DNA of 64,000 nucleotides from an uncultured virus (IMG/VR IMGVR_UViG_3300008113_000068) (IMGVR_UViG_3300008113_000068), one strand, 5' to 3'. Shown: positions 16,001 to 34,789, counted from the first letter of the stretch. The notes: generated from the letters alone by a model not told the origin. A program made the numbers and translations.

Positions 16001-17463
16001 CCACTACTTGATGTATTAAAAAGTCCACCTGATATTAATGAACAATTACCATTGGCGACATTACAATATCCTCCACTATTAGTTGACTTGCAACCACTCG
16101 CTGTATTACATTGACCAAATACTGTTGAAAAATCACCAGATGCTAAATTTGTTGCTCCACATCTTAAAGTAGATGTAGCACCTGTTCCTAACACAACAAT
16201 TCCAGATCCACCTCCACCAGCGGTGTATGGAACAAGTAAACCATTTGTTGAAACACAAACACCACAACCACTACAAGCTGCTGCACTTACTATTGTTAAA
16301 TCATTAACAAATGTTGTACAAGCTCTATTTGTTGTGATGTTACTACCTACAATAAATGAACACGCACTTGATGCTATGTTACTAATACCACCTAAAATTC
16401 CTGTTGCATTACCACTTGCAGTATTTAAACATCCACCACCTATAAATGAGTTTGCTAAACTCGCTGTATTAGACCATCCTCCTGCAATTGTATCTACACA
16501 ACCACTCGCTACATTACAAAGTCCACCTCCAATTGTTGAGAATCCTCCACTTGTATTATTATTAAATCCTCCTCCAATTGTTGTGCCACTATTTGAAGAT
16601 GTATTTTGAGAACCACCACTAACTACTGCATTATTTGATGTTGCTCTATTTTGAAATCCGCCTCCTATGAATGAGTATTGACCTGCATTACAAATCGTTG
16701 GTGCAACAGTAAATGCACAAGATGCTAAAGACCATGTTCCGCCGAAAGTATTGTTACCAACACCACCAACAACTACCGCTCCGTAAGCAAGGCAACCCGA
16801 TGTTGAATTACAAACATTATTGCAATTTCCACCTCCAATAAAACCATCAAAAGAGTTGTTAAGATTTCCTCTTCCACTACCAATAAATGACCGATAACCA
16901 GATGCAGTATTAGAAGCTCCACCTCCAAGTATTGAACTTTGTCCAGAAGCAATGTTAGCAACACCTCCAAGTACACTTGAACCTGGACTACTAGCCGTAT
17001 TACTAAAGCCACCTAATACAGAAGTATAACATGCGGTTGAAGAATTATTTGAACCTCCACCAATTGTGGACATTAGTCCAGATGCCGTATTAACATAACC
17101 TCCCGAAATAGTTGAACTAGTTTGAGGTGCAGTATTTTGACGACCACCACTTACTGTTGCAAAAAAAGCAGATGCTGTGTTAGAAAAACCACCACTTACT
17201 GTTGAGTATTCACCACATGCTGTATTACTATTACCGAATGCAGTTGAGCAATTTCCTGATGCAATATTACTATTTCCACATCTTAATGTCGAACCACAAC
17301 CCGCTCCTAATACAACAATTCCACCTCCAGCAGTTGAGCAAACAGTAACTACTCCAACACCACATGCGGGTGAAATAGCAATGTTTGTACCAGCAACTAA
17401 TTGAGTTACGCCACCACCACCAGATCCACCACCGGATCCTGACTGAAAACCAAATTCACTCAT
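13009..17463 (-). CDS. Gly/Cys/Asn-rich repeat fibre or spike protein A, 1484 aa
   Basis: Same repeats, same MSEFGFQSG start and same C-terminal motif as its paralog; built from three tandem segments. Confidence 0.8.
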   Translation of the reverse strand: MSEFGFQSGSGGGSGGGGVTQLVAGTNIAISPACGVGVVTVCSTAGGGIVVLGAGCGSTLRCGNSNIASGNCSTAFGNSNTACGEYSTVSGGFSNTASAFFATVSGGRQNTAPQTSSTISGGYVNTASGLMSTIGGGSNNSSTACYTSVLGGFSNTASSPGSSVLGGVANIASGQSSILGGGASNTASGYRSFIGSGRGNLNNSFDGFIGGGNCNNVCNSTSGCLAYGAVVVGGVGNNTFGGTWSLASCAFTVAPTICNAGQYSFIGGGFQNRATSNNAVVSGGSQNTSSNSGTTIGGGFNNNTSGGFSTIGGGLCNVASGCVDTIAGGWSNTASLANSFIGGGCLNTASGNATGILGGISNIASSACSFIVGSNITTNRACTTFVNDLTIVSAAACSGCGVCVSTNGLLVPYTAGGGGSGIVVLGTGATSTLRCGATNLASGDFSTVFGQCNTASGCKSTNSGGYCNVANGNCSLISGGLFNTSSSGYSTVGGGRQNTSSASGSTVAGGSVAVASGTYSTAGGGRLITSSGYGSTVSGGYQNTANNCFSTVSGGRCNISSGFRSTNGGGFKNLNNSIDGFVGGGNCNNVCNSTSGCLSFGAVVVGGVGNNTTGGTWSLASCAFSVAPTICNAGSYSFVGGGFQNSATNLGSTISGGNLNTSSGQNSSIGGGYNNTASGCYSTIGGGLCNRTTVFGATIGGGCFNCNAGQYSFIGSGQGNNIAGGLNNVITGGQNNTLSSQLFLSTIAGGVQNSMSGTNSASYSVWRPYSFIGGGFLNSINTSFSGCYSTYNAQHVIGGGFQNLAGYTVSSDYAAFYPNTIGGGQQNNSTGVGATIGGGFANNATAQFSIVSGGYLNNASGGFSAIVGGDGNVASNQGSFVGGGVSNTSSGYRSTISGGSQNTSSGRLSNVTGGRCNTTSSYYSTINGGCCNLICCNTLLSTMGCGSVIGGGGCNTISNKCSTISGGYYNLSNAVDTFIGGGNYNTTCGTFAAGQTTGAVVVGGIGNNTTGGTWSSYNCNWTGFPTRCTAGCVSFIGGGFQNRASSSLSIIVGGCKNQVSGEGSVILGGISNCAFSLYSGILGGSTNVVNQACSFIVGSNITTNRACTTFVNDLTIVSASACTGCGICVSTNGLLVPYTAGGGGGGIVVLGAGATSTLRCGATNTASGDYSTVFSQCNTASGLRSAVVGGFKNLNNSIDGFIGGGNCNNTCNSTSGCLAYGAVVTGGVGNNTVGGTWSLASCQFTVAPTICNAGIYSFVGGGFQNKASASQSTVAGGRCNTSSSYGSTIVGGLKNNSCATNATVSGGYQNTASGISSTVVGGQGNSASNQSATVAGGNNNAATGNASFVGSGASITASGTFSTISGGYLNNASGGTAVMGGGKRNTASGYYTFVGGGFCQTASNEYTIVVGGKRNTANAPYSGVFGGAFNTASNDCAFIVGSNITSNRPCATFVNNLSIMNIPTSSAGLPSGAVWKNGNVLNIV

Positions 17464-17870: not shown

Positions 17871-18362
17871 TTATTCTTTCTTTCTTAATACAAAAAATGC
17901 AATAGCACCTAATACCACTACAACACCAACTCCAATTGCTATTTTCGTGTTCTTAGACATTGGTTCTGTTGTTTTTGGTGTAGATGTATCATCACCTTTC
18001 AATGCCTTCGCTAATTCAACATCTGATGCCTTATCTTGTGATAATCCTTTATTCAAATCTGCGCGAGATTGAATTTCTGCTGTTTTAGCTCCTTTTTTGA
18101 CAAATCTTGCGTCTTGTCTTCGTTTTTTGTTTGATTGTCTTCTTGCTTTACCACCATCTGCCGGATAAAAATTATCTTGGTCATAATAGTTAGGTGTGTT
18201 TTGTGCAGCGGATGCTGCAACCATTGTTACAATACCATCTTCATTTGCATAATTTCCATCAGCAGGATAGAAATCATCTTGGTCTAATGTTCTACGTGTA
18301 TCAGATGGTGATGATTGCTCAATTGAAATGTTTTCACCATCAAGTTCTAAATTTGTTTTCAT
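17871..18362 (-). CDS. Virion membrane protein: acidic leader, basic segment, C-terminal TM
   Basis: FYPADG twice and YANEDG; PMSKNTK followed by TM and RKKE. Confidence 0.7.
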   Translation of the reverse strand: MKTNLELDGENISIEQSSPSDTRRTLDQDDFYPADGNYANEDGIVTMVAASAAQNTPNYYDQDNFYPADGGKARRQSNKKRRQDARFVKKGAKTAEIQSRADLNKGLSQDKASDVELAKALKGDDTSTPKTTEPMSKNTKIAIGVGVVVVLGAIAFFVLRKKE

Positions 18363-18928
18363 TTCTTCTTTATTAATTTAATGTATAAAACATATAAAGC
18401 AACTACACCAATTGCAATTACTATAATTTGTTTTGAATCAGTTTTTTTACCAGTAACTGCTGGTTTATACTTTTTGGCTTCTTCATCTAATTGCTTTAAA
18501 TTGTTACTTTTAATAACAGATAAAACCTTAGGTACATAATCGTTTGCTTCTGCATACCCTGCTTTAGCAATCGCTTGAATTTGTTCTTCTGGTGTTTTCG
18601 CTTTGAACACTCCCGCGTTTTCATACCTTTTGTTCTTTTGCAAGAATGAAGTATGGTCTGATACAGAATCAGCAGGCGATGGATATTTACGAAATACAGA
18701 TACTTTATTTGCATCATTGGGTGTTTTCAACGAAATAGTTTCACCTGTCCATCCAACACCCTTTTTAATGCCAAAAAAATTGTTACCTAAACGAGCATTT
18801 GCAGATGCACCCCAACCACTTTCTAATATCATTTGTGACATCTTTACACTTGGGAATATTCCCGTGTTATAAGTTGCTTTAATAACATCGTCTTTGTGCT
18901 TTGATATGAAATCTGTTTGTTTACTCAT
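18359..18928 (-). CDS. GH73 glucosaminidase/muramidase (FlgJ-like) with C-terminal TM
   Basis: QMILESGWG, NNFFGIK, FRKY and GYAEANDY, then a TM anchor. Confidence 0.88.
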   Translation of the reverse strand: MSKQTDFISKHKDDVIKATYNTGIFPSVKMSQMILESGWGASANARLGNNFFGIKKGVGWTGETISLKTPNDANKVSVFRKYPSPADSVSDHTSFLQKNKRYENAGVFKAKTPEEQIQAIAKAGYAEANDYVPKVLSVIKSNNLKQLDEEAKKYKPAVTGKKTDSKQIIVIAIGVVALYVLYIKLIKKK

Positions 18929-18931
18929 TTG

Positions 18932-19699
18932 TTATGCTTTTACGAAGTAATTAGCCAATCCCCATTTGTAATTACCACCATTGTCTGGTAAATAAAACCC
19001 ATTTGCTTTTACTTTTACAGCAACTTCAATTGGATTAATATCTAAAACAACATCACCTGTTTTTGTTCTAAATGTTTTACCACCCCAAACAAATGCAGAT
19101 TTATCATTATCAAGATTAAATGCCCATAATTTTAACCAACTTGGATCTCGCTTTTCTAAGTATTCTCTTTTCACTTTTGACCCTGTTCCTTTTGCAAGAA
19201 TTAAGCTAATAGCTTTTTCAACGTCAGCAGGAATAGTTGTACCACCGCCAACAGTTGAAGGTGAATAACTAGAACCAAATAATGTAAATGCAGATTTAGT
19301 TGAAGGTCCATAAATACCATAACCTTTTCCACCAACATGGCGATTTGGTTCAGAAGGTGTACCTACACGTATGTTTTTATACTTACCATCAGTATCTTTA
19401 ATCCATAAAGGATGATTTTTATCCATCCAATCCTGGAACGCTTTAATTTTTTCAACTGTATTCAATGCAGTTGGCGTTGTAACAACTGTACCACCACCAC
19501 CTGTACCACCGCCACCAGTAGTTATAGTTGTTGGTTCACCATTTGGAGTTGAATCTTCAGAATCAGGAATACCATCTCCATCGGTATCAACTATTCCTGG
19601 TTTAGATGATTTAGATTTATTGTAGAAATAATATACTACACCTCCAATAACAATTAATGAACCACCAATAAGCAATAATCTTTTAGTGTTATCGTTCAT
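18932..19699 (-). CDS. N-terminal TM protein with a DxDGDG motif and a peptidoglycan-binding-like segment
   Basis: DTDGDGIPD; IKAFQDWM...GIYGPSTKSAF. Confidence 0.6.
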   Translation of the reverse strand: MNDNTKRLLLIGGSLIVIGGVVYYFYNKSKSSKPGIVDTDGDGIPDSEDSTPNGEPTTITTGGGGTGGGGTVVTTPTALNTVEKIKAFQDWMDKNHPLWIKDTDGKYKNIRVGTPSEPNRHVGGKGYGIYGPSTKSAFTLFGSSYSPSTVGGGTTIPADVEKAISLILAKGTGSKVKREYLEKRDPSWLKLWAFNLDNDKSAFVWGGKTFRTKTGDVVLDINPIEVAVKVKANGFYLPDNGGNYKWGLANYFVKA

Positions 19700-19704
19700 A
19701 ATGA

Positions 19705-19920
19705 TTATTTTTTAACTGTTCCTTTTGCTGGAGCTGATTTTTTAGCTTGAATAGCGGATTGTGCATAAGCACCTGCTACACCACCTAATACTGCTAAACC
19801 TACTACTAAATACATTTTAGAAATACCTGTGTATTTCTTAACTGCGAAATAAGTCAATCCTGCTCCTGCAATTGTTCCAATTACATTTGCTTTTACTTTG
19901 TTTGTTGCTGTTTTTAACAT
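19705..19920 (-). CDS. Small 2-TM virion membrane protein
   Basis: Two Gly/Ala-rich hydrophobic helices with Lys-rich ends. Confidence 0.7.
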   Translation of the reverse strand: MLKTATNKVKANVIGTIAGAGLTYFAVKKYTGISKMYLVVGLAVLGGVAGAYAQSAIQAKKSAPAKGTVKK

Positions 19921-19950
19921 CTCTTTAAATTTTAAATAGTTTGTAAATAA

Positions 19951-20058
19951 TTATTTCTTAACTTGTTTGATAACAAGGAAAGTTAACAATCCGATAATGA
20001 TTAGATTGTGTACGTTTTGTCCACCAAGGAACGTGTTAGGGTTTTTAATGTCAAGCAT
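19951..20058 (-). CDS. 35-aa TM microprotein (not in ORF track)
   Basis: MLDIKNPNTFLGGQNVHNLIIIGLLTFLVIKQVKK fills the intergenic gap. Confidence 0.6.
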   Translation of the reverse strand: MLDIKNPNTFLGGQNVHNLIIIGLLTFLVIKQVKK

Positions 20059-20094
20059 CTTTTCTGGGTTTTTGTTTGTTAATAAAATTGTTAA

Positions 20095-20295
20095 TTAATC
20101 TTTTGTTACTGTTATTACTTTGTCTTTCATTGCGTAATTGAACGCTGCCACACCAACTAAAATAGCGATTACTGGCATAATTCCTTCACGAACATTTTTT
20201 ACAGAAAGCAATTGCATTCCTGCTCCTACTACTAATGCAGCAGATCCTGCGATTGTAGCGATTTTTACTGTTTTTTGAACTGTCGGGTTTTTCAT
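20095..20295 (-). CDS. Small 2-TM membrane protein
   Basis: Two hydrophobic helices. Confidence 0.7.
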   Translation of the reverse strand: MKNPTVQKTVKIATIAGSAALVVGAGMQLLSVKNVREGIMPVIAILVGVAAFNYAMKDKVITVTKD

Positions 20296-20311
20296 TTGAT
20301 TTGATTTTTAA

Positions 20312-20806
20312 TTATATTCTGTATTTAACTTTGTTGTTCATTAAAATTGTGTTTATTTTCTTAACTTCTGTTGAATCCATTTCACTTCGTATGAATTGAG
20401 TTAACGTCTTTTTACGACCAATTCCCCATTCATAAACTGTTCGTGTAGGTTTTCCCCATGCTTTTAACAATGCTAAATAATCTGCATTATTTTTAATTTT
20501 TCTAAATACAGAGTAAATTGCCTCTTCATCTGTACCAACATCATAACCTGCTTCTTGAATATTGTTAGCAAAAGTTGCATATTGTGAAGCACCATAAGTT
20601 AAAGGTGTTTTCTTAATTTCTGTTTCAAGTTCATCTTTAATTTGTTTATCTTCTGTTGCATCACGTAAAGGTTCTTCACCTAATTTCTGTGTCACTTTGT
20701 AAATAATATAACCAAGACCAGCAAGAATACCTACTGAAATAACTCCTTTTGCCCAAGGTGGTAAACCTTGAAATGATTGTTGTGCGAATTTTGTATTTAC
20801 TGCCAT
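20312..20806 (-). CDS. TM-anchored annexin-like domain protein
   Basis: GxxxGTDEEAIYSVF resembles the annexin GxGTDE motif. Confidence 0.55.
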   Translation of the reverse strand: MAVNTKFAQQSFQGLPPWAKGVISVGILAGLGYIIYKVTQKLGEEPLRDATEDKQIKDELETEIKKTPLTYGASQYATFANNIQEAGYDVGTDEEAIYSVFRKIKNNADYLALLKAWGKPTRTVYEWGIGRKKTLTQFIRSEMDSTEVKKINTILMNNKVKYRI

Positions 20807-20826
20807 TTTATTTTGTTTTTAATTAA

Positions 20827-21891
20827 TTATACTACCCAAGCGCTTAATCCATCTAAATTGACTACAAAACCTCCTATATCAGTTTCTTCAGCAGGGTCAC
20901 AGTCAAATAAAAATTGATTAGTATTATAAGGTATTGTCCATTGACGAGTATAATTTACATTACTAATTGAACTTTGTGTATATCCACCAGTTGAATTATC
21001 CCAACCAACTACATATTGACCTGCTTTTACTCTTGATATTAATTGTCTAGCACCACCTGAGCCAATACCTATTACAGAATTTGGAATATAAGGTGAAGAT
21101 TCAACATCTTTATATGTTTGCAACAAAAGTTGGTTTGTATCGGTTAAAACAACATTAAGAGGTGCAGATAAAGCAACTCCTGCGTTTGCATCTCTTGTTT
21201 TAACAACTCTACTGCATATTTGAAATCCAGTATTATATGTTTTATCAATATTAATATTGTAGATGCTAGGAAAAATATCATTTCCTAAATTGAAAGCTAA
21301 TGAACCATTTGAATTTAATAAACAACCTCCTGTTCCTTGATAAACATACGCATACGGATCTAGTGTGTAGAAAGCACCAATACCAGATTCAGTCATAGGA
21401 ATTAATGTTGTTCCACTTAAAGTTGCTGATAAAGGTACAATTGCGTTTCCTCTAAAGAAAACTTGTTTACCATATAATCTAAATTGTGGTTTACGAGGTT
21501 CAGCGCTAGAAATCCAACTAAATCCTAATAAATCAACCCAACCTGAATCTGATAAATTAATTGCTAATGGTTCACAAACAAAAGTTGTGTTTCCACTAAT
21601 TCGAACAATGCAACTACCACCATTTACATTTAATATAACACTTGATTGAGCGTTAATTGTTTGCCCAGTTCCTGCGTTGATTGTAATATTATTGGTAGCT
21701 GCGTTATTGGAATTATCAACTACATATAATTTCCATGTAGTCATCCAGTAATCATTTGGAATATCTAAAAGGTTAATTGTAACTGGACCCGCACTTGTGT
21801 TACAATACAAAACGACATCATTATTCGTTAACACAGGAGTTCCGGTGACAATTCTTGATGGGTTTTGATACTGTTGTGCGTACATGCTCAT
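20827..21891 (-). CDS. Beta-rich structural protein (spike or penton candidate)
   Basis: CNTSAGPVTINL..IP...VVD.SNNAATNNITI and DSGWVDL motifs, typical of phage spike or fibre bases. Confidence 0.6.
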   Translation of the reverse strand: MSMYAQQYQNPSRIVTGTPVLTNNDVVLYCNTSAGPVTINLLDIPNDYWMTTWKLYVVDNSNNAATNNITINAGTGQTINAQSSVILNVNGGSCIVRISGNTTFVCEPLAINLSDSGWVDLLGFSWISSAEPRKPQFRLYGKQVFFRGNAIVPLSATLSGTTLIPMTESGIGAFYTLDPYAYVYQGTGGCLLNSNGSLAFNLGNDIFPSIYNINIDKTYNTGFQICSRVVKTRDANAGVALSAPLNVVLTDTNQLLLQTYKDVESSPYIPNSVIGIGSGGARQLISRVKAGQYVVGWDNSTGGYTQSSISNVNYTRQWTIPYNTNQFLFDCDPAEETDIGGFVVNLDGLSAWVV

Positions 21892-21893
21892 AA

Positions 21894-22970
21894 TTACAAT
21901 AATCTTTTACTTTCGCGTGCTTCTTCGTAGAAGACACCTTTAATTTGTACTTGTTCGTAAAAATATACCATAGTCACTCTCATTCCTGCAAAAATGGTGT
22001 AATTAATCACATCCATTCCATCTGGGATAAAAGGTCTATTCAAACTATCCTGTAAATCAAATGCAATCACATAGTTAAATGTTTGCATATTATCAATTTT
22101 CAATGATAAGTTTACCGGGTCAATTTTCTTATAACCTTGCATATTCTTATTAATGAACTTCATTGCCAATGCTTGTTGTTTTATCAATTGTGCAGAAGGA
22201 CCATCGAATGTAAAATAAGCACTGTGTATAATTGGTGGGTTTGCGAGTAAGTTAAATAATATATCACTATACTGCGCATTTCCACCAGCTACGGTTACTC
22301 TGTTGTTCAAATTTTGTGAAGTTGAGTAAAGGTAATCCAATGGCATAGAAGGGTCAAAAAGGTTCAAATTGAAATCAATATCTGTTTCGTTATTAATTTC
22401 TAAAATCAACTCTTTTAGTTTCTTTCCATTTTTGTAACCAACTTGTTTTATCTTTTCATCACGTTTGTCTTGCGATAAAATGAATTTTGAAACACCTTCA
22501 ACAATAACCTCTCTATCTCGTGGTACAATAACCTTTGAAATGAGTTTTTGATTTCTGCCTTTAATTGTTGCGTTTCTTTCAACAGGAACGTCTTTAATGA
22601 CTTTTCTGCGTGTGAAACGTTTAGTTACATTACTCCTACTTAAAACTTCATTAGATGCGCTCTTTTGCACATCTCTTGTTCTTTTGACTGCTTTGACTAC
22701 TTGTGGACGTTTGAATCTCCTCCTTGCAGTACCTTCAACAATCACACTTCTATTCTGAGGTACAATTACCTTTTGAATTTTCGTATTTACTTTTGTGAAA
22801 TTTGTTTTAAAATTTTCACCATCCAATGAACTAAAATCTATATCCTCAACCGATTCATCGAAATCATCAAAGTTATCACTATCTTCATAAGAAGATTCAG
22901 AACCAGATCCATACAGGAATTGATTCAAGCGACCTTTTAAATCATACTCATCAATATCAAATAATTCCAT
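21894..22970 (-). CDS. Capsid-protein paralog: acidic leader, basic region, C-terminal jelly-roll-like domain
   Basis: C-terminal ~165 aa align by eye with 28896..29609; internal repeat KVIVPxxRxVIVEG occurs twice. Confidence 0.6.
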   Translation of the reverse strand: MELFDIDEYDLKGRLNQFLYGSGSESSYEDSDNFDDFDESVEDIDFSSLDGENFKTNFTKVNTKIQKVIVPQNRSVIVEGTARRRFKRPQVVKAVKRTRDVQKSASNEVLSRSNVTKRFTRRKVIKDVPVERNATIKGRNQKLISKVIVPRDREVIVEGVSKFILSQDKRDEKIKQVGYKNGKKLKELILEINNETDIDFNLNLFDPSMPLDYLYSTSQNLNNRVTVAGGNAQYSDILFNLLANPPIIHSAYFTFDGPSAQLIKQQALAMKFINKNMQGYKKIDPVNLSLKIDNMQTFNYVIAFDLQDSLNRPFIPDGMDVINYTIFAGMRVTMVYFYEQVQIKGVFYEEARESKRLL

Positions 22971-22981
22971 TTATTTCCTTT

Positions 22982-23770
22982 TTAGTTGCGTTTCGCGAAC
23001 TCTTGATTCTCAAATTTCTGAATGTAATCCATAATCTTACGCATACGTTCAATGTTTCCTTTAGTTTGAGCTTTAAGGAACACGTTTGCAAAGACACAAA
23101 TAGCATCAATTTTTGAGAAACCTAATCCAAGGTAAATATACAAAGCATTTATGTCAGCACCAATTTCATCATTAATTTCTAAACCAATTTTAGGGTTCTT
23201 ATATTTATGAGAAAACTCATGCAATAATATAATTAAACGCATTGGAATTGTGTATTTATCAAACTTAACTTTCGCTGTTTCGATAATACCACTCTTATGT
23301 CCAATACGCGCAGGTGTGTTCATCACTTGACCTGATTTCTGGTCAGTAATTACGTTAAAGTATTTAATTGTAAATAACTTATCTTGCGTTGTCCAAACAC
23401 GTCCACTATCAGCTGCTTTAGTAAAACCACTAACTTGACTGAAAGGAATGGCTAAGGAAAGAAAATCACGTGTGTCTGAATCTAACCAAACGTTGTATGT
23501 GATTAAGTCACTTTCTTTTAATTCAACCTTAAAATCATTATCACCTGGATTATCTGCGTTTAAACAACCAATGAATAATTTTTGTGGTGAAACAGGAAAA
23601 TTGAAATGAATAGTACGTGTGCCTTTCACAACAATTTCTCTATCTGCGTATTTTGAATTTGGTTTTTGAAATTCCTCAGCCCAAACACGAAACTTTTTCT
23701 CGCCTGAACAAGTAATAGTTATGTATAAACTAAACTTATTATTTGAAGAATTATATTCTTTACCAAACAT
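22982..23770 (-). CDS. Zn metalloprotease (HExxH...ExxAD); candidate virion maturation protease
   Basis: ILLHEFSH...DEIGAD, in the middle of the structural block. Confidence 0.7.
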   Translation of the reverse strand: MFGKEYNSSNNKFSLYITITCSGEKKFRVWAEEFQKPNSKYADREIVVKGTRTIHFNFPVSPQKLFIGCLNADNPGDNDFKVELKESDLITYNVWLDSDTRDFLSLAIPFSQVSGFTKAADSGRVWTTQDKLFTIKYFNVITDQKSGQVMNTPARIGHKSGIIETAKVKFDKYTIPMRLIILLHEFSHKYKNPKIGLEINDEIGADINALYIYLGLGFSKIDAICVFANVFLKAQTKGNIERMRKIMDYIQKFENQEFAKRN

Positions 23771-23775
23771 ACTGC

Positions 23776-24507
23776 TTAGTTCTTTTTAACAACAGAATAA
23801 ATAATCAAACCTAAAACTGCAACACCACCTACAATTAAAATAGTTTTTGTTGTTTTTGACATTGGTTTCGCATCATCTGCTGGAGGTGTTACTGGTGGAG
23901 CTGTATCCGTTGTTGGAACTGTACCACCTAATTTATCTACAATGTATGATGTTCCTGATGTTAATATAATTTGACCATTTTCTGATTTTCTAAACTTTTC
24001 AAATCCACCTTTCAAAGAATTCCAAAATTGACCTTCTTTTTTCGCTTTATCAGCTTGTTGTTTTGCTGTCGGTCCTCCAGGAATGTTTTGCAAATTCGCA
24101 AGATATTGTGAAGGAGGAATAGAAATTGTTCCCGTTGGCAAACCTGCTTTCAATGGATTTGTTTTACCTAATGGATTACCATCAGCGTTTTCAAATACAT
24201 CACCATAACTTGTGAACTCACCAAAATCAAACGAACCATCAGAATAGTTTCTTCCTGAATACAAATACTGGTCCATTGGTGTTAATACTTCACCATTTGA
24301 ATCAATTTCATTAAGATACATAAATTCATTTTTTGTTATCTCTTTGTCATTATCAAAAACAGGATTTGTTCCTTTAATAACGAAATCACCTACTGCAACT
24401 TGTTGTATTGCTCCCGGTAAGTCAAATTTAGGGTCATTTAATTTGTAATCATTAACGTCTGGTTGCGCTGGATTAACTAAAACTGGATATTTTGTTACTA
24501 TGTTCAT
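23776..24507 (-). CDS. Virion membrane protein with C-terminal TM
   Basis: FENADG; PMSKTTK followed by TM and KKN. Confidence 0.7.
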   Translation of the reverse strand: MNIVTKYPVLVNPAQPDVNDYKLNDPKFDLPGAIQQVAVGDFVIKGTNPVFDNDKEITKNEFMYLNEIDSNGEVLTPMDQYLYSGRNYSDGSFDFGEFTSYGDVFENADGNPLGKTNPLKAGLPTGTISIPPSQYLANLQNIPGGPTAKQQADKAKKEGQFWNSLKGGFEKFRKSENGQIILTSGTSYIVDKLGGTVPTTDTAPPVTPPADDAKPMSKTTKTILIVGGVAVLGLIIYSVVKKN

Positions 24508-24517
24508 CTTTCTAATT

Positions 24518-25042
24518 TTAAATAAATTCTTGTTTGTTAACTATTTGAACTTTTGGTTTACCATTTGATGTGCGATACACAATATATGCAGCAGCAACCG
24601 CTCCTGCTAATGCACCATACATTTTATATTTTTTGTCAGGTTCTGGAATCCAACCTTGTTTCTCTGCAACCACAACACCAACAACACCAACTAATGCACC
24701 AAGTAACATAGCATCAATGTAACGTACTTTTGGATTTGTAGGAACTGAAACTTTTTTCGTTTCACCTGTTGTAGACCCACTAAATGCACTCATTTCATTT
24801 GCGCGTGTTTCTGCACCTACCTGTTTTGTTACAATTTCTTTGACTGTATCAAGACCTACAATTGCATTGTTTTCAGCTAAAATAAATGCAGGTTTGTTGT
24901 TTGCATGTTTTAACTCACCACGAAATTGTTGACCTTTTCTAAACGTTTTAAACTTTACTTGTTGTGGGTTATGAGGCATTCCTGTAACCTCAACGTAAGG
25001 AGCTTTAAAATCGTGTGTTGATATATATGTTTTCTGTGCCAT
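24518..25042 (-). CDS. Membrane protein with 2 C-terminal TM
   Basis: Small N-terminal domain, MSAFSG, then two helices. Confidence 0.7.
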   Translation of the reverse strand: MAQKTYISTHDFKAPYVEVTGMPHNPQQVKFKTFRKGQQFRGELKHANNKPAFILAENNAIVGLDTVKEIVTKQVGAETRANEMSAFSGSTTGETKKVSVPTNPKVRYIDAMLLGALVGVVGVVVAEKQGWIPEPDKKYKMYGALAGAVAAAYIVYRTSNGKPKVQIVNKQEFI

Positions 25043-25043
25043 A

Positions 25044-25148
25044 TTATTTAATTAATCGTGGTTTTTTTGCGTCTTTTGCTTTCTTGTATTCATTATAAAT
25101 GATTACTCCTAATCCTGCAACTGCTAAAATTGATAATATCTTTTTCAT
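25044..25148 (-). CDS. 34-aa TM microprotein (not in ORF track)
   Basis: MKKILSILAVAGLGVIIYNEYKKAKDAKKPRLIK; ATGA overlap with the upstream gene. Confidence 0.65.
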   Translation of the reverse strand: MKKILSILAVAGLGVIIYNEYKKAKDAKKPRLIK

Positions 25149-25543
25149 TTTTTAGATGATTTATAAATTACAAATCCAATAATTCCTAATACAACAACTC
25201 CACCTGCAATTAAACCTATTTTCATGCCTTTTGACATTGGTTGTTTTGTATCTGTTGTAGGCGTTGTATCAGTTATGGTAGTTGTAGGTTGAGTATTAAC
25301 ACTACCACCTAAATCAACACATTTTTGCCATTCTACACGTGCTTTTTTACTTAATGGTTTTTTACCACAACGTTGTTCAGCATCTGTGTAACTTCTTTGT
25401 TTACCTGCTAACGTAGAACCAATTCCGGTTAAAACATCCGCGCCTGCTTTTAATGCATCCGGATTCATTTGTTTTCTTTCTTTTGCTGGTTTATCACCTT
25501 CTGCGTTTGAAAAAATAACTGGTTTGTCTGTTATGATATTCAT
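25145..25543 (-). CDS. Virion membrane protein with C-terminal TM
   Basis: FSNAEG at residues 11-16; PMSKGMK followed by TM. Confidence 0.7.
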   Translation of the reverse strand: MNIITDKPVIFSNAEGDKPAKERKQMNPDALKAGADVLTGIGSTLAGKQRSYTDAEQRCGKKPLSKKARVEWQKCVDLGGSVNTQPTTTITDTTPTTDTKQPMSKGMKIGLIAGGVVVLGIIGFVIYKSSKK

Positions 25544-25544
25544 T

Positions 25545-26210
25545 TTATTTCTTTTTTCGAATTTGATAAACTGTTACCCCTAATACGATTAATCCTAACA
25601 ATGAACCTCCAATTAGATAAACCAATTTTTTAGTTTTCGTTTTGTTTTCTTCGTCTTTTTGTTTTGCTGCTAAATTTGCTTGTTTAGCTTGTAAAGCAGA
25701 TGCAATCATTGCTTGTTTCGCTTCTTGTTGTTTTTGTGCAATTTCTAAACCACCATACTTTTTTTTGTTCTTGCTTTCTTGAACATTAGAGCCTAATTTT
25801 AAACCTTGTCCAACTGTTTCTGCAATAGCCGTTATTGGATCTACTGCATTAGAATAATTTTCATCAACAAAATATGTTCTCATAACGTGGTATCCATTTT
25901 TAACGTTTTCATCTGATAATTTTGCATCACCATCAAAATTTACTTCTTTGTTTTGCATATTTACCAAAAGTGATGCTCCAACCATTAAGTTTTTGTTATA
26001 AGGAACATTAGTGACAAATCTGTCAATCAATTCCAAATCACTATCACTCATTTCGCCCGGTACACCAGATTCATTTAACAAATGCACAAAATCCTTTTTT
26101 CTACGAATCAATGTTGCGCCTAATTCATGCATTAAGACTTCATTTGCCGAAGTATAATCACCTTTGTTAAGGCATATATTGAAATCATCGCAAAAATCAG
26201 TATAAAGCAT
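25545..26210 (-). CDS. Virion membrane protein with C-terminal TM
   Basis: VNFDG and YSNAVD; coiled coil, then TM and RKKK. Confidence 0.7.
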   Translation of the reverse strand: MLYTDFCDDFNICLNKGDYTSANEVLMHELGATLIRRKKDFVHLLNESGVPGEMSDSDLELIDRFVTNVPYNKNLMVGASLLVNMQNKEVNFDGDAKLSDENVKNGYHVMRTYFVDENYSNAVDPITAIAETVGQGLKLGSNVQESKNKKKYGGLEIAQKQQEAKQAMIASALQAKQANLAAKQKDEENKTKTKKLVYLIGGSLLGLIVLGVTVYQIRKKK

Positions 26211-26215
26211 TTATT

Positions 26216-26323
26216 TTATTTTTTTGAATGTTTAAGTTTAATAAAGAACATTGCTAAATATCCAATAGCAAAACTTGCGTAAATTGCTAATAATACTTTA
26301 TCTTCTTGTTTAACTTTAGACAT
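26216..26323 (-). CDS. 35-aa TM microprotein (not in ORF track)
   Basis: MSKVKQEDKVLLAIYASFAIGYLAMFFIKLKHSKK fills the gap. Confidence 0.6.
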   Translation of the reverse strand: MSKVKQEDKVLLAIYASFAIGYLAMFFIKLKHSKK

Positions 26324-26325
26324 AA

Positions 26326-27690
26326 TTACATTTTAATCCATTTGTATTGTTTGTTCAATGCAATGAAACCAACCGTAAGTAAAACACCAACTGCAATACT
26401 ACCTAAATCAATTCCTTTTGTAAATGAACCATCAGCGCCTAAATATACTTCTCTAATTGCTGGTGCATCGTAATCCAAAACATTGTCTAACGCGTTAATT
26501 CCTGTTCCTGTTGCATTTGATGTGCTTTCAGAAGGAACTACAATACGATTTTTTTCAATAACTGGATTCAAATCTGCATTTACAGCAGTTACATCACCTG
26601 CATATCCTCTACCTCTACTTGGTCGAACACATTTTGCTTTTGCTCTTTTACGTGCCATCATAACTTCTCTTTTACGAGCTGTTATTACCTCAGGTGAACC
26701 ATCAGCATTTGAATAATTACCACATGCGTTAGCATAATCAACTAATTCACCATTCAAATCCTTCAAACGTTTTGCACGAATTAAAATAGTTTTTGAAATT
26801 TCTTGTGGATTACCTGTTGCATTTTGACGTTGTAATTTCAATGCTTCGATTAATTTCTCGTTCCAAACTGTTTTATCAGCTAAATCTTGAACTGTTGGGT
26901 TTACAACGATGTCGTTAACGTCTTGCATTTCGTTATATCTATCTTCTGCACCCATTACACCATCAAAATTTTCACCTTCATATTCATCAACGTAAACTTC
27001 CTCTGAATCATAATCTTCTATTGCATCCTGATAACCTTGTTCGTATGCATCGTCTAATTCTGGTTCTGAACCATAAATGTCTTGTGAATCATCTTCTGAC
27101 CCATATTCAGGTCCATCGTATTGTGTTTCATCACCGTAATAACTTCCTTGACCTGTTTGACCTCCTGAAATTCCACCATCATTATAACCTTGACCACCAT
27201 CATCATAACTAGCACCATCTTGATATTCTGCTGGTTTTGCTTGTGGTTCAATTGGTAAATCACCCATTTCACCTGGGACTGTTTGGTCTAAACCAGAATC
27301 AGAAGGGTTACGTAAACCTCTTTTATATGCACGTGTGTCTGCTCTTTGCATTCTACGTCCTGTTCGAGATTCAGTACCCATTTCACGTTTTGTTAAACGT
27401 TTATCTTTTCTTGCAGTTTGTAATTGCGTTCTACCTTCAATTCTACCTGCTTGAATTTGTTGTCTTCCTGCAACTCTTTCTGCTCTTGTTTCTTGTCTAG
27501 CTTCACGTCTTGCTCCTTTTACTTCTTGACGGTTAGAAATACGTTCTAATTTGCGTTGTTTACGTTTTGCACGTCCAGTCCCATCAGCATACGAATAACC
27601 TCCTACACCATATCCGAAAGCATCTTCAAAAGAAACTGCTTCTGTTCCATTAGAAACTGGTCCTAATTTTACAATTCTTAATTCTCCCAT
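26326..27690 (-). CDS. Charge-segregated virion precursor protein (Arg-rich, acidic, coiled coil, C-terminal TM)
   Basis: YSYADG, YANACG, YSNADG, SNATG and LGADG motifs. Confidence 0.7.
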   Translation of the reverse strand: MGELRIVKLGPVSNGTEAVSFEDAFGYGVGGYSYADGTGRAKRKQRKLERISNRQEVKGARREARQETRAERVAGRQQIQAGRIEGRTQLQTARKDKRLTKREMGTESRTGRRMQRADTRAYKRGLRNPSDSGLDQTVPGEMGDLPIEPQAKPAEYQDGASYDDGGQGYNDGGISGGQTGQGSYYGDETQYDGPEYGSEDDSQDIYGSEPELDDAYEQGYQDAIEDYDSEEVYVDEYEGENFDGVMGAEDRYNEMQDVNDIVVNPTVQDLADKTVWNEKLIEALKLQRQNATGNPQEISKTILIRAKRLKDLNGELVDYANACGNYSNADGSPEVITARKREVMMARKRAKAKCVRPSRGRGYAGDVTAVNADLNPVIEKNRIVVPSESTSNATGTGINALDNVLDYDAPAIREVYLGADGSFTKGIDLGSIAVGVLLTVGFIALNKQYKWIKM

Positions 27691-27708
27691 TTTGAATTTC
27701 TTTATTTA

Positions 27709-28179
27709 TTAATTTCCTGCGACTACAGTACCTTTTCTGTTTCTGTCTACAACGTATGCTGATGCATACCCAATTAACGCACCTGCGAAAATGTACATAA
27801 CAGTTTTCTTTGTATCACATTTTTTGTACTTGCAATATGCAAATCCAGCTAATGCACCTAATACTAATCCTGTTGTTTTTACTTTATTGAATGTTTCAGC
27901 AGGAATCAAATTAACTACAGTTGAGCTTCTTTGGCTATCTGCTCCTAATGTTACTTCTGTTGTTTCCATGGGAGTTATGTTTTTTAAATAAATAATTTTA
28001 TTATCGTTAGTTACAAATAATCTATATGTGAAAGGTTCTCCTCTACGAAGTCCTTGTACGTTCTTTATTTCACCAGACAATACATTTTCTTTACCTATGA
28101 CTTCATTTGTTTCTGTGAAGTTTTTATGTTCGGTGTTCGGTATTAAAACTTTACTATCTTGGTTTACTAATACTTTCAT
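27709..28179 (-). CDS. Membrane protein with 2 C-terminal TM
   Basis: Architecture like 24518..25042; contains LGADS. Confidence 0.7.
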   Translation of the reverse strand: MKVLVNQDSKVLIPNTEHKNFTETNEVIGKENVLSGEIKNVQGLRRGEPFTYRLFVTNDNKIIYLKNITPMETTEVTLGADSQRSSTVVNLIPAETFNKVKTTGLVLGALAGFAYCKYKKCDTKKTVMYIFAGALIGYASAYVVDRNRKGTVVAGN

Positions 28180-28181
28180 AC

Positions 28182-28694
28182 TTATTGATTTTTTACAGCT
28201 TTTAATACAAATACATACGTTATTCCTAATAGTCCTAATAACATCATAGGCACAATTAATCCTTCAATTCCAATTTTTGTGGATGTAGGACCTTCTGCGT
28301 TTAAAAAGTTTTTATCTGTATATGGTTGATTTTGGCATTGAGGACACATGCAATCGCCTGTTGCATTAGATTTAACTTCCTCTACTAGTACCTGTTTTGA
28401 TGTTTCTTCAATAGCAGGCTTTACATTTTTAAGAATCCAATTCTTATGTGGATGAATATCAGCTAACTTTTTTTCAAGTTCAACCTTATCTTGTGTGTTG
28501 AAGTATAACTCAGCAAGTTTTAATTCAAGGTCTTTGTAGTTTTTAGCATCCGATTGACCGTATTCCTTTAATATCTTACGAGATGGACCCGTTGCTTCGT
28601 TAGCAAGAACAGTCATGAGTGTTATCTCTTGACCACCATTCCTAACTTTATTTTTATCCGAACTCATATTGTTATTATTTCGCTTTGTAAACAA
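28182..28694 (-). CDS. Virion membrane protein with C-terminal TM (start probably about 28667)
   Basis: SNATG, CxCxxC, FLNAEG and a TM. Confidence 0.7.
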   Translation of the reverse strand: MFTKRNNNNMSSDKNKVRNGGQEITLMTVLANEATGPSRKILKEYGQSDAKNYKDLELKLAELYFNTQDKVELEKKLADIHPHKNWILKNVKPAIEETSKQVLVEEVKSNATGDCMCPQCQNQPYTDKNFLNAEGPTSTKIGIEGLIVPMMLLGLLGITYVFVLKAVKNQ

Positions 28695-28803
28695 TCATTC
28701 CTGTTTTTGTCTTTGTTGCTACATACGTTTTACCATTATGCGTAAAAGACTTTGCACCTTCTTTACGTGCTTTGTTCATTTTTGTGAAATATTCGTTTGC
28801 CAT
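28675..28803 (-). CDS. 42-aa basic protein, possible DNA-binding core protein (not in ORF track)
   Basis: MANEYFTKMNKARKEGAKSFTHNGKTYVATKTKTGMIVYKAK. Confidence 0.6.
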   Translation of the reverse strand: MANEYFTKMNKARKEGAKSFTHNGKTYVATKTKTGMIVYKAK

Positions 28804-28836
28804 GGTTCTGTTTTTTTAGTGAATGTATTTGTTATT

Positions 28837-28873
28837 AAAAAAGGGCAGAGCAAATAATATTACCCTGCCCTTT
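28837..28873 (-). terminator. Intrinsic terminator after the capsid candidate
   Basis: AAAGGGCAG...CTGCCCTTT hairpin followed by a T-run on the minus strand. Confidence 0.75.
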
Positions 28874-28895
28874 AATATGTAGGTTGAATAGATGA

Positions 28896-29609
28896 CTATC
28901 CTGTAATTCCTTTAACCGCTTGAGCAGTTTGGATGATTACTGGAGCAACATTTTTACCTGACAAACGCGGAGCGCGAGCCATGTTCAATGAGCGACCACC
29001 GTTCAATGCAGCCTTAGATGACATAACCTCTACTGGGAACATAGAGATAACAAATACAGCTGAACCTGCTAAAGTGAAGGTGATGTATGTGTTACCATCT
29101 ACTGTAACTGGTTTAGTCACATCTAAGATGTCTGATTGTTGCTGGTAAGCATCACGAGCGATAGACAAGTTCAACGGAGTTGAATATTGTTTACCATTCG
29201 CATCAACGTGGTTCAACTGCAAAGTTTGTGATAACTGAGAAGCTGTCGTTGATTGAAAACGCCATTTACCAATCTTGAACGCTTTGTTGTTCGATTGTGT
29301 TAACAAACGACCGTAAGTACCACCTTGTAAGTTGGTAATTACTACTGCTGCAGGGTTACCGAAGTTAGTTGCAATACTATAGTCGTTGAATCCGAATAAT
29401 ACAGCTGTTACTGCTGCAGTTGTCGTGTTTTGGTACTGGATTACGTATGGGTCAGACACCATTGAAGATGCGTTTGGTCCTGAAGCGTAAGACATATCAT
29501 CATTATCGAAATAAGACATGTTTCCTTCGTATGAATCGTATGAGTCAAATCCGCTCATTCTCTCTGTTCCATTAATGTAACCGTGTAGTTCTTTTTCTAC
29601 TGAGTTCAT
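28896..29609 (-). CDS. Putative major capsid protein (single jelly-roll candidate)
   Basis: Soluble and beta-strand-rich. Many C-ending codons (TTC, AAC, TAC) in an AT-rich genome, its own terminator, first large gene of the virion block. Confidence 0.6.
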   Translation of the reverse strand: MNSVEKELHGYINGTERMSGFDSYDSYEGNMSYFDNDDMSYASGPNASSMVSDPYVIQYQNTTTAAVTAVLFGFNDYSIATNFGNPAAVVITNLQGGTYGRLLTQSNNKAFKIGKWRFQSTTASQLSQTLQLNHVDANGKQYSTPLNLSIARDAYQQQSDILDVTKPVTVDGNTYITFTLAGSAVFVISMFPVEVMSSKAALNGGRSLNMARAPRLSGKNVAPVIIQTAQAVKGITG

Positions 29610-32153: not shown

Positions 32154-32846
32154 TTAATCAATTTTAATTCTTCCTATCGAACCATGTTTGTAAAATTGTT
32201 CTTCAATTTCTGGTAATAGGTATTGTTTTCTTAATGTTGCAGGTCCATGTCCAATTTTTGCGCCAATTTTACGTAATGCTTCATTAAATACTTTCGCGCG
32301 TTGTTTTTCGTCTTTTACTTTACCTATGCGATTTAATTCCATCACCATCAATCTATTTGCATTGAATCCTCTGATGTCTTTTGATTTTGCATCAAACTTA
32401 TGCAAATAACGATTTACTTTGTCTGCTTTGATTTTAAAACCATCTTTCGTAACGAATACAAATGAATCATTTCGCTTCATTAAATCGCGTAACATCATCG
32501 CACATGTGACGTCTGTGAATTGTTTTTCATGTTCAACACCACTCTTACCCACATAATTCAATGTGACTGTGTTTCTATCTACAGTAATGTGTTTGCGTTT
32601 AAATTCAGTTACCCCGAAATGACCATTTTTCGCAGATTCGGAATTACCTACACGTTCTGATGTTAACATCATAATTCTAACAACAAGTGCAGTTAGGCGT
32701 GTTTTATCATCTGATGAATATAAATCAGCTTTTAGTTTTCTTTTCAACCTATCAATTTTATCGCGTAGGTTGTAAATAGAATCGCGTTTTAATTCCCAAC
32801 GCTTATCTAAATCATATTCTTTAATTTTCAGTTCCATGGAAGTCAA
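32154..32846 (-). CDS. DNA topoisomerase IB, catalytic domain only
   Basis: Catalytic pentad present: ERVGN (R), GKSG (K), KDIR (R), IGH (H), RKQYL (Y). Confidence 0.85.
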   Translation of the reverse strand: MTSMELKIKEYDLDKRWELKRDSIYNLRDKIDRLKRKLKADLYSSDDKTRLTALVVRIMMLTSERVGNSESAKNGHFGVTEFKRKHITVDRNTVTLNYVGKSGVEHEKQFTDVTCAMMLRDLMKRNDSFVFVTKDGFKIKADKVNRYLHKFDAKSKDIRGFNANRLMVMELNRIGKVKDEKQRAKVFNEALRKIGAKIGHGPATLRKQYLLPEIEEQFYKHGSIGRIKID

Positions 32847-33940: not shown

Positions 33941-34789
33941 CTACTTATTTGTGTTACCGTAAAACTGTTCGTAAAATTGTTTTTGTAATACGAGCATAGC
34001 TTCTGGTTTACTCGTTCCATTCATTTCAACATACTCCTTTAATTCACGTTTGTTGATATTCAAATACTTTTCACATGCATCCAAAAATTCCTTTTTCGTG
34101 AACTTACCTTCAATCTTATTTTCAAAACAATGAATGTACACAAAGAATCGTTTATCTTGATTGTAGTATCTTGTCTTAACTAGTATTTCAGCAATTTTGT
34201 ACAATGCTAGGTTTGCGATTTTACCTTTAATATCATTCACATTATCTTGTTGATAATGTAAACGCATCCAACGTGAATTTGAATACATACGTGGTTCAAC
34301 TGCGCGAAGTGATTGATATGAAATTAACATGTCTACACCTCGGTGACGTAAGTTTACCAATCCCCCTACAATTTCCTCCATGTGCGTAACATTCAAGATA
34401 TAGGTGTTGATATCTTCAACAACAAGCAAACCATTTTTGTAGTAACGAATGATGTATTCTAATACCTTTTTCTTTTCAGGTATAGAAAGGTTCTTTGCAT
34501 CAATACGTCTACATTCAACTATATCCGATAAACTCCATTCGGGAATATCTCGTAAAGCAATAACTCGTGGGTTGAAGTTTTCAATATCATTACGCGCAAA
34601 TTGTTCTTTTGTATACTCACCATTAGTATCCATAATAAGACATTTCCTTCCCCTAACTTTGTTGAAGAATTTATCTGCAACGTATGATTTAATGATATAC
34701 ATGTTCTGATAGGTTTTACCTACACCTTGTACACCAGTTGTGACCATCATCCCAGCTGCGCGTTCTTTATTTTTAACTTCCTTTGCCAT
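33941..34789 (-). CDS. FtsK-HerA superfamily, A32 / PRD1-P9-like genome packaging ATPase
   Basis: Walker A GVQGVGKT, Walker B LLVVED, then LRHRGVDMLISYQ (Arg finger plus conserved Gln) and PRMYSN. Confidence 0.8.
   Translation of the reverse strand: MAKEVKNKERAAGMMVTTGVQGVGKTYQNMYIIKSYVADKFFNKVRGRKCLIMDTNGEYTKEQFARNDIENFNPRVIALRDIPEWSLSDIVECRRIDAKNLSIPEKKKVLEYIIRYYKNGLLVVEDINTYILNVTHMEEIVGGLVNLRHRGVDMLISYQSLRAVEPRMYSNSRWMRLHYQQDNVNDIKGKIANLALYKIAEILVKTRYYNQDKRFFVYIHCFENKIEGKFTKKEFLDACEKYLNINKRELKEYVEMNGTSKPEAMLVLQKQFYEQFYGNTNK

Follow-up and report, generated by a model that had tools for sequence, protein, structure and literature searches.

In the 64,000-nucleotide stretch of DNA from an uncultured virus analysed here (IMGVR_UViG_3300008113_000068, hereafter the window), a short peptide signal with the core aromatic-S-N-A-x-G recurs across the proteins of a single gene block, at positions 17871-29609, which also encodes a zincin-like HExxH protein. 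The motif is real, confined to this structural block and conserved in homologues, and it suggests that particles of this virus lineage mature by proteolytic trimming, as an earlier note on this DNA had proposed. The observation behind that proposal is confirmed and strengthened, and the maturation interpretation, built on sequence and structural models, appears plausible, specific and testable. In the reading favoured here, to which we give slightly less than an even chance, a zincin encoded by the virus (22982-23770) would cut many particle proteins at this site. The hexapeptide would be the recognition signal of this single viral zinc metalloprotease, and would be displayed in flexible parts of ten or more structural proteins, comprising N-terminal leaders (in two jelly-roll proteins and several small membrane proteins) and linkers preceding C-terminal membrane anchors. 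Cleavage at the signal or beside it, while the particle assembles or once it has done so, would strip leaders, perhaps propeptides serving assembly or charge masking, from the jelly-roll and core-like basic proteins, and would free soluble domains from their membrane anchors.

Enrichment of the motif was assessed by setting the block, represented by its 17 minus-strand open reading frames (ORFs; 3,669 amino acids, aa), against the remainder of the window, represented by 71 ORFs (16,796 aa); two small ORFs on the plus strand of the block are in neither set. All 19 motif instances listed in the earlier note were recovered in the ORFs to which it had assigned them, when these were re-translated from the window coordinates. 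The pattern [FY]xxA[DE]G occurs eight times in the block, compared with a mean of 0.20 in shuffles preserving composition, none of 1000 of which reached that count, and it is absent from the 71 outside ORFs (shuffle mean 0.44); the strict form [FY]SNA[DE]G is found twice in the block vs 0.00 in shuffles. This first definition was made post hoc, after looking at the window, a circumstance that favours chance as an explanation, and a window-independent test was therefore added in the form of a weight matrix built from 37 unique 10-mers, taken only from the leaders of capsid-like proteins in relatives with a protease identity of 42% or less. The independent matrix gave four matches in the block vs 0.07 in shuffles (maximum 1 in 200) and none outside it vs 0.34 expected, in agreement with the claimed enrichment over the rest of the window.

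Shared ancestry of the carriers would be a second way of obtaining the same motif many times, and in its favour three small proteins do share a paralogous anchor region. All-against-all BLAST revealed a C-terminal anchor common to the products of 17871, 23776 and 25145, together with a weak match between those of 17871 and 26326, and nothing else, so that the description of the carriers as otherwise mostly unrelated is a fair one. The shared module (in 17871-18362, 23776-24507 and 25145-25543) consists of a P-M-S-K-x-x-K sequence, one transmembrane helix and a lysine-rich end, and the motif segments fall outside the paralogous regions; since only these three small proteins share it, paralogy explains little. 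Moreover, composition-preserving shuffles never reached the observed counts in the window, in 63 related loci or in a related contig of 375 kb, and motifs with permuted order stayed at background. Chance was rejected on the shuffles, the permuted-order controls and the independent matrix, and the whole explanation by chance, composition or common descent retains a negligible probability.

The expected conservation of the motif in homologues was borne out by the 63 related loci, in which it keeps the same place in orthologues. The family-wide set comprised 1,682 unique proteins from these loci, the capsid-like family and the near-identical locus L001 being excluded. Here the strict pattern [FY]x[NGS][AVM][DENS]G occurs 141 times, against 19.0 ± 4.5 in shuffles (maximum 32 in 100) and 10-22 occurrences of four order-permuted control patterns; of the 87 protein clusters with members in five or more loci, 20 contain it. 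It is absent from the protease (0/54) and the ATPase (0/41 unique members), as well as from a 401-aa family (0/39) and a family with a LEA_2 domain (0/42). A relaxed regular expression was dropped as too permissive, matching for instance 24 of the 41 ATPases. The capsid-like family, counted separately, carries the strict form in 36 of its 51 unique members. Within the contig of 375 kb the strict motif matches 15 times vs 3.9 ± 2.1, and 11 of the 15 matches are concentrated in 17 kb immediately upstream of the gene for the protease.

Several features of these sites are those of a signal read in an accessible stretch of chain. Among the strict instances, 56 of the 141 lie within the first 60 residues, and the polarity around the sites exceeds that of randomly chosen positions of these proteins (0.630 vs 0.580, p 9e-9). 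The position of the site is kept in orthologues while the flanks diverge, with insertions and deletions around it, a combination that, judged from the sequences, is typical of a short linear recognition motif. The final G of the core is invariant and is preceded two positions earlier by A or another hydrophobic residue; before this A, an N, an S and an aromatic residue (or M) are usual, which places F or Y five and S four residues before the G. In the 139 unique strict instances the second position favours S (4-fold), and the two residues before the aromatic one favour E, D or N.

This residue pattern bears on another explanation, namely that the motif is a structural or metal-binding turn related to the DxDxDG loop of EF-hand calcium sites, or else a modification site for glycosylation or an isoaspartate switch. 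The N at position 3, D at 5 and G at 6 match the EF-hand loop, as does, with its hydrophobic position 8 and acidic position 12, the repeat YLNADGDLRKVD of one relative, and glycosyl- and sulfotransferases are encoded in the window. However, position 1 is aromatic and not Asp, the D ligand is replaced by K, R, S or T and the N by E, Y, G or P, and it is the non-ligand S and A that are conserved instead; as for modification, N-x-S/T is met only sporadically and the chemistry of D-G or N-G does not apply to the S-G, K-G and R-G variants. We consider a turn or modification site very unlikely.

Among the carriers, all of them encoded on the minus strand, the 237-aa protein at 28896-29609 was the only one modelled (AlphaFold2, 44 aligned sequences), and it appears to be a capsid-like precursor with a jelly-roll fold. 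The model has a helix at residues 3-18, a stretch at 16-50 with a predicted local distance difference test score (pLDDT) below 50, a beta core at 53-205 with a score of about 90 and a floppy tail. Its two motifs (YDSYEG, 29523-29540, and MSYASG, 29478-29495) lie at residues 24-44, within the disordered leader and before the fold, which starts near residue 53. The structures matched by the core are jelly-roll coat proteins of viruses (GFLV, Z 6.2; PR772 chain O, 5.7; phiCjT23, 5.7; STIV, 5.5; FLiP, 5.3), and picornavirus-like capsid proteins are the best Foldseek rows, with E values of about 1e-3. As these fold scores are modest, the name capsid protein draws on fold, conservation and synteny together, from which it would be this protein that forms the shell. 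In the ESM Atlas, the 237-aa and 401-aa proteins fell in unnamed viral clusters only; for the 401-aa protein no evidence of a double jelly roll was obtained there, its Atlas model being poor (pLDDT 0.53) and its neighbours including helical proteins at low template-modelling score. Across all clades the leaders of the capsid-like family have one layout, in which an amphipathic helix is followed by the first motif, an acidic and aromatic stretch, the last motif, 5-17 variable residues and an invariant S-x-P-Y at the start of the fold, with two to five motif copies per leader.

A second jelly-roll protein repeats the scheme, since the C-terminal domain of the 358-aa protein at 21894-22970 is paralogous to the 237-aa jelly roll, being matched in 16 loci by the iterated profile of the 237-aa family; this protein also gave a weak Pfam match to the CFA20 jelly roll. 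There are thus two paralogous jelly-roll proteins, the 237-aa one and the C-terminal half of the 358-aa one. The latter begins with an acidic leader that leads through FSSLDG (22818-22835) into a basic region, and its site reads D[IFL]DFSx[LFIVM]xG in all 15 unique near-clade orthologues. A comparable succession is found in the 454-aa protein (26326-27690), with a leader, a basic region, an acidic region and a C-terminal anchor, and with five sites (YSYADG, 27580-27597; YANACG, 26719-26736; YSNADG, 26698-26715; SNATG, 26506-26520; YLGADG, 26428-26445). In the 14 unique members of its family, the site at residue 32 has the form [FY]S[ENQ][ALF][RKDQ]G immediately before the basic region, and that at residue 416 the form SN[AVMF]xG before the anchor.

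The remaining carriers are small membrane proteins, in several of which the site adjoins the anchor or the N-terminus. The 170-aa protein (28182-28694) has a C-terminal membrane segment and, directly before it, SNATG (28356-28370) and FLNAEG (28290-28307); the position of the pre-anchor site is kept in most of the 27 unique members of the family, with variants such as YSNAEG, FLNASG, YFNATG and MSSAEG, in the midst of flanks that cannot be aligned. The site of the 156-aa membrane protein (27709-28179) is TLGADS (27934-27951), for which its 16 unique family members have TLGAD[SGA], YSNADA or LNA[NT]G, and that of the 174-aa membrane protein (24518-25042) is MSAFSG (24776-24793), orthologous to [TVIQ]SN[AFL]xG in 16 unique members. 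Four further proteins are tail-anchored. The one of 132 aa (25145-25543) carries FSNAEG (25496-25513) at residues 11-16; the one of 243 aa (23776-24507) carries FENADG (24178-24195), which scored 12.1 with the matrix trained independently of the window; and the one of 163 aa (17871-18362) carries FYPADG twice (18255-18272 and 18153-18170, the second followed by a basic stretch), both copies being kept in L001, together with YANEDG (18234-18251). The 221-aa protein (25545-26210) has the weak variants VNFDG (25929-25943) and YSNAVD (25839-25856). The latter lacks the final G and is therefore the weakest instance, and it aligns in relatives with FSNAGG, YSNSVG, FENAEG and YLDADG. That the carriers are proteins of the virion is what we infer from the jelly-roll fold, the many small transmembrane proteins, a nearby ATPase of HerA type and the synteny; the virus is probably a membrane-containing bacterial virus.

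The candidate maturation protease is a zincin-like protein of 262 aa encoded at 22982-23770 on the minus strand, with HEFSH at residues 184-188 followed by E202. Of the window's 90 greedy ORFs no other has an HExxH, and the place of this gene in the middle of the structural block, which had been pointed out before, recurs in every relative examined. Throughout 55 sequences of 27-59% identity, H184, E185, H188, E202, D206 and R242 are invariant. The AlphaFold2 model (pLDDT 97.2, predicted template-modelling score 0.93) begins with an N-terminal beta-sandwich (1-90) and continues through a linking helix and a small sheet to the helix with HExxH (175-194) and the next one (202-215), which starts with E202; the alpha/beta catalytic domain spans residues about 98-262. 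Such an order of beta-sheet, HExxH helix and then a helix with Glu is the one expected of a gluzincin, and the modelled position makes E202 a candidate third zinc ligand. Exhaustive structural comparison gave as best match for residues 101-255 the E. coli M48 protein BepA (6sar; Z 8.3, root-mean-square deviation 4.5, 123 aligned residues), with further M48-type matches lower down (3c37, Z 6.8; ZMPSTE24, 6bh8, Z 6.4), and BFVD returned a protein with an M48 domain (E 2.5e-3). The N-terminal sandwich matched carbohydrate-binding and GOLD-type domains.

In spite of these structural likenesses, the window protein matches no Pfam family (at E 0.01 or E 1), no PHROG and no NCBIfam, and the 55 members gave only sub-threshold matches to zincin families, distributed among PhageMetallopep (6/55), M56 (5/55) and SprT-like (4/55), with M48 matched by a single member (E 0.12). 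The first of these, PF18894 or 'Putative phage metallopeptidase' in Pfam, is the zincin family matched by most members (best E 0.0047), but all its matches lie below its cut-off and the window protein has none. M48 proteins (BepA/YfgC, HtpX, Ste24) and other zincins of clan MA also have HExxH followed by a Glu in the next helix; unlike M48, the window protein has neither Pfam membership nor a membrane segment or TPR domain, its N-terminal beta-sandwich is unique to its own family and its third-ligand candidate comes only 14 residues after the second His. Altogether, we call it, from sequence and model, a zincin-like protein of a new family and not a member of M48. As a separate observation, residues 110-115 of the protease (23426-23443) read FSQVSG, with F110 and G115 invariant or nearly so in the family; this stretch is at the end of the helix linking sandwich and catalytic domain and is modelled as folded; its role may be structural, or it may act as a pseudo-substrate or a site of autoprocessing.

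If this enzyme does act on the motif, the scissile bond could lie after the G or between N and A. Gluzincins usually prefer a hydrophobic residue at P1', where a cut between N and A would put one. The link between motif and zincin comes from neighbourhood and co-occurrence only, which leaves room for a different arrangement, in which another enzyme, of the host or a viral one that escaped recognition, cuts the motif, and the HExxH protein has some other job, such as degrading proteins of the host envelope or of host defence at entry or exit. The resemblance of the N-terminal sandwich to carbohydrate-binding modules would suit such a job, and the small residue at -3 with G at -1 recalls the -3/-1 rule of signal-peptidase-type enzymes. 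Nevertheless, no hydrophobic signal-like segment precedes the leader sites, Pfam and PHROGs revealed no other protease-like gene in the window, where the M15 and glucosaminidase genes encode cell-wall hydrolases, and no gene of the module is conserved more widely than that of the zincin, found in all 64 loci. A different enzyme as the author of the cut is, in our estimation, quite unlikely.

A stronger competitor would do without proteolysis. The motif might be a docking or incorporation signal, comparable to capsid-targeting sequences or to the cargo peptides of encapsulins, which binds a common partner (the shell, a scaffold, a membrane patch or the beta-sandwich of the protease) and recruits proteins to the particle, any cut being absent or incidental. 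This would account for a motif placed on unrelated proteins of one module, in disordered stretches, and absent from non-structural proteins. It would explain at least as well the multiple and tandem copies, which suit avidity and of which the extreme case comes from the contig of 375 kb. There, in the region of locus L152 (G001:C16:123779-124768), a membrane-anchored protein of 329 aa has the layout of the window 454-aa protein, with DSFSNAKG near the N-terminus followed by a basic region, an acidic region, about ten tandem motif repeats of 12 residues of the type YLNADGDLRKVD and a membrane anchor. Docking leaves unexplained why the sites fall at junctions like those of processing, between leader and fold, leader and basic region, or soluble domain and anchor; it leaves an ever-present protease gene with intact catalytic residues devoid of substrates; and no candidate receptor was identified. 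We hold a pure docking function to be unlikely, while counting it as the chief alternative.

Maturation by the zincin offers its own account of the repeated copies, for by analogy the multiple sites of the leaders and the about ten tandem sites of that relative fit the chopping of propeptides into small pieces, as carried out by T4 and phiKZ-like phages. Several points nonetheless weigh against it. A multivalent binding signal would account equally well for the tandem copies (two to five in leaders, about ten with a period of 12 residues). The residue before the G is unconstrained, with D, E, S, N, T, K and R all found at orthologous sites, and the [DE] that the earlier note had placed in the motif is not part of its core, close as the consensus of that note otherwise comes. 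The same note had the motif often ending an acidic leader before a basic or folded segment, a description that stands for four or five window proteins and that is not general across relatives, where the charge of leaders shows a weak trend (-0.12 per 10 aa vs +0.32 at random positions) and the downstream side no difference. All relatives appear to have the protease, and consequently motif and protease offer no presence/absence correlation. On the side of the enzyme, the structural match to M48 is modest, a Z of 8.3 being the usual best score for models that have no clear relative; Foldseek against the PDB matched the N-terminal sandwich only, and a sequence-profile search of the PDB with the protease family yielded nothing meaningful. 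Finally, a cut at the motif, its execution by this enzyme and the choice of scissile bond are all steps that we infer from sequence.

The relatives from which the conservation was derived form a large group with a constant gene order. Homologues of the HExxH protein number 785 in a word index and 501 as representatives of clusters at 50% identity; among the matches listed, lengths run from about 100 to 310 aa, most near 260, and the sole name given is 'hypothetical protein'. Scans of viral contigs gave 64 loci, their proteases ranging in identity between 98% and 29%, in which the order is 401-aa family, ATPase, capsid-like protein, small membrane proteins and protease, with the ATPase gene adjoining the capsid-like one. 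The capsid-like protein is present in 63 of these 64 loci and the ATPase in 50. A scan with the capsid-like protein added 20 further contigs, 14 of which have the protease 3.3-6.5 kb downstream while the other six end less than 2.8 kb after the capsid-like gene; no relative with the capsid-like gene and lacking the protease was found, all six loci without it being cut by contig ends. No tblastn match to the ATPase, the HExxH protein or the 237-aa protein was found among 50,697 deposited phage records, nor any match to the DNA of the block, and a DnaB search of deposited phage records gave distant, uninformative matches only.

The contig of 375,071 bp (G001:C16), whose protease is 38% identical to that of the window, has a uniform G+C content of 31.5%, a coding density of 94% and 652 ORFs. 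Among 17 of its large proteins that were sampled, no housekeeping genes were recognisable, and its large proteins include a polyvalent protein of 3,006 aa, a GIY-YIG endonuclease and a PPDK-like enzyme. It looks viral throughout and not like a host chromosome, and it may represent, instead of a prophage, a tailless virus of jumbo size. It also encodes two paralogues of the protease without HExxH and about ten of the capsid-like protein (L133, L146-L164). As regards hosts, 17 loci belong to metagenome-assembled genomes, whose binning labels are the only indication: 11 are Bacteroidota or related, including Ignavibacteria, four DPANN archaea, one Chlamydiae and one 'uncultured bacterium'. The contigs binned to DPANN (L125, L128, L129 and L132) are labelled Woesearchaeota, Pacearchaeota or 'archaeon', labels that probably reflect mis-binning by low G+C and counsel caution in host calls.

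The window itself has 30-37% G+C, with nearly every gene on the minus strand. Replication and cell-wall genes of bacterial type were recognised with Pfam and PHROGs (DnaB, DnaA-C, RusA, M15 peptidases, SLT and glucosaminidase), the same searches of the window proteins found no HK97 capsid, portal, terminase or tail hallmarks, and the window contains no tRNA genes. Most ORFs of the block have one hydrophobic segment, often C-terminal and then followed by lysines, and in these databases a known family was found for the glucosaminidase only. This cell-wall hydrolase (18359-18928), which has a C-terminal hydrophobic anchor of its own within the structural block, is possibly a particle-associated lysin. 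Outside the motif block, the HerA/FtsK-type ATPase of 282 aa (33941-34789, minus strand; Pfam DUF87, the HerA central domain, 30.9 bits, cut-off 23.2) is, from its sequence, likely to be the genome-packaging ATPase of a tailless virus type.

Other genes of the window are of interest in their own right. Two very large proteins of 1,119 and 1,484 aa (9639-12998 and 13009-17463) are made of Gly/Ser/Asn/Cys-rich repeats of the type GGxxNxAS plus large-scale internal repeats; they have homologues in 16 related loci and would probably serve as fibres or spikes. The replication genes are otherwise of bacterial type, but the catalytic core of a eukaryotic-type topoisomerase IB is present (32154-32846; Pfam Topoisom_I, E 7e-21), and a polyvalent protein of 1,185 aa (48215-51772) combines DUF5824 with an ADP-ribosyltransferase domain (ART-PolyVal). 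Consecutive ParB-like, tRNA-guanine-transglycosylase-like, QueF-like and radical-SAM-like genes (61696-63982 and 60983-61699) suggest, from sequence similarity, a 7-deazaguanine modification of the viral DNA. The virus also encodes an Fe/Mn superoxide dismutase (3446-4042), a protein with a LEA_2 domain (6939-7466), with homologues in 50 of the 64 loci, and a sulfotransferase (7509-8342).

Virus-encoded proteases that act at consensus sites during maturation are a hallmark of tailed phages, herpesviruses, adenoviruses and poxviruses. The adenovirus protease, adenain, has consensus sites in pIIIa, pVI, pVII, pVIII, pX and pTP, and the proposal made here shares with it a single viral protease acting on many particle proteins, a short consensus ending in Gly, leaders removed from capsid-associated and basic core-like proteins, and a jelly-roll capsid, here a putative one. 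In contrast to adenain, a cysteine protease, the candidate is a zincin with another consensus, a probably bacterial host and many membrane-anchored substrates, and cleavage is a prediction only. Poxvirus morphogenesis for its part includes a metalloprotease, G1, of a different family with an inverted motif. The comparison with adenovirus and poxvirus core processing drawn in the earlier note is apt as an analogy of mechanism, whereas the phrase 'but using a metalloprotease' provides no clean contrast in view of G1. Among tailed phages, the prohead protease gp21 of T4 cuts at L/I-x-E and gp175 of phiKZ at S/A/G-x-E, again with one compact consensus across many head proteins and with propeptides and scaffolds cut at several sites. 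These are, however, serine proteases of assemblin fold working on HK97 capsids, whereas here the candidate is a zinc enzyme and no HK97, portal or terminase signal was seen with Pfam or PHROGs.

Closer in architecture are P23-77 and SH1 (Helvetiavirae), tailless membrane-containing viruses with two single-jelly-roll capsid proteins, which resemble the present lineage in the two paralogous jelly-roll proteins, the HerA/FtsK-type ATPase and the many small membrane proteins. They differ in genome size, 16-31 kb in the part of the literature covered vs 65 kb to possibly 375 kb here, and the fold matches that underlie the likeness are weak (Z 5-6). No description of proteolytic maturation in viruses of this type was found in the portion of the literature on membrane-containing phages that was covered. 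In this regard, the terms protease, proteoly-, cleav- and propeptide are absent from the main text of a 2019 review of such phages, and term searches of the later NO16 and Jorvik papers returned no viral maturation protease, in keeping with the earlier statement that none was known in membrane-containing phages. More broadly, the full-text literature, with subscription journals outside its scope, held no description of this virus family, of the motif, of the enzyme or of proteolytic maturation in membrane-containing phages. To judge by this literature, no phage is known to use a zincin for particle maturation.

Taken as a whole, the sequence and modelling data would be compatible with an entire lineage, abundant and uncultured, of tailless, membrane-containing jelly-roll viruses of bacteria, with genomes from about 65 kb to perhaps 375 kb, in which particle maturation is the task of a dedicated zinc metalloprotease from a new family, cutting at least ten capsid, core-like and membrane proteins at aromatic-S-N-A-x-G and having arisen independently of the systems of adenoviruses, poxviruses and tailed phages; we put this wider claim forward tentatively, at a probability clearly short of even. 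Should docking turn out to be its true function, the motif would act as a cargo tag throughout the virion, likewise unreported for such viruses. If the zincin does mature these particles, this would be a first case in two respects, for proteolytic maturation among prokaryotic viruses that contain a membrane and for a zincin in the capsid maturation of any phage, and the defined site together with a compact enzyme of 262 aa would make an immediately testable system. Site and enzyme would moreover mark a large group of uncultured viruses, represented by the 501 protease clusters and unmatched in the deposited phage records, and the predicted mature ends of about ten particle proteins would aid the interpretation of cryo-electron microscopy and metaproteomic data.

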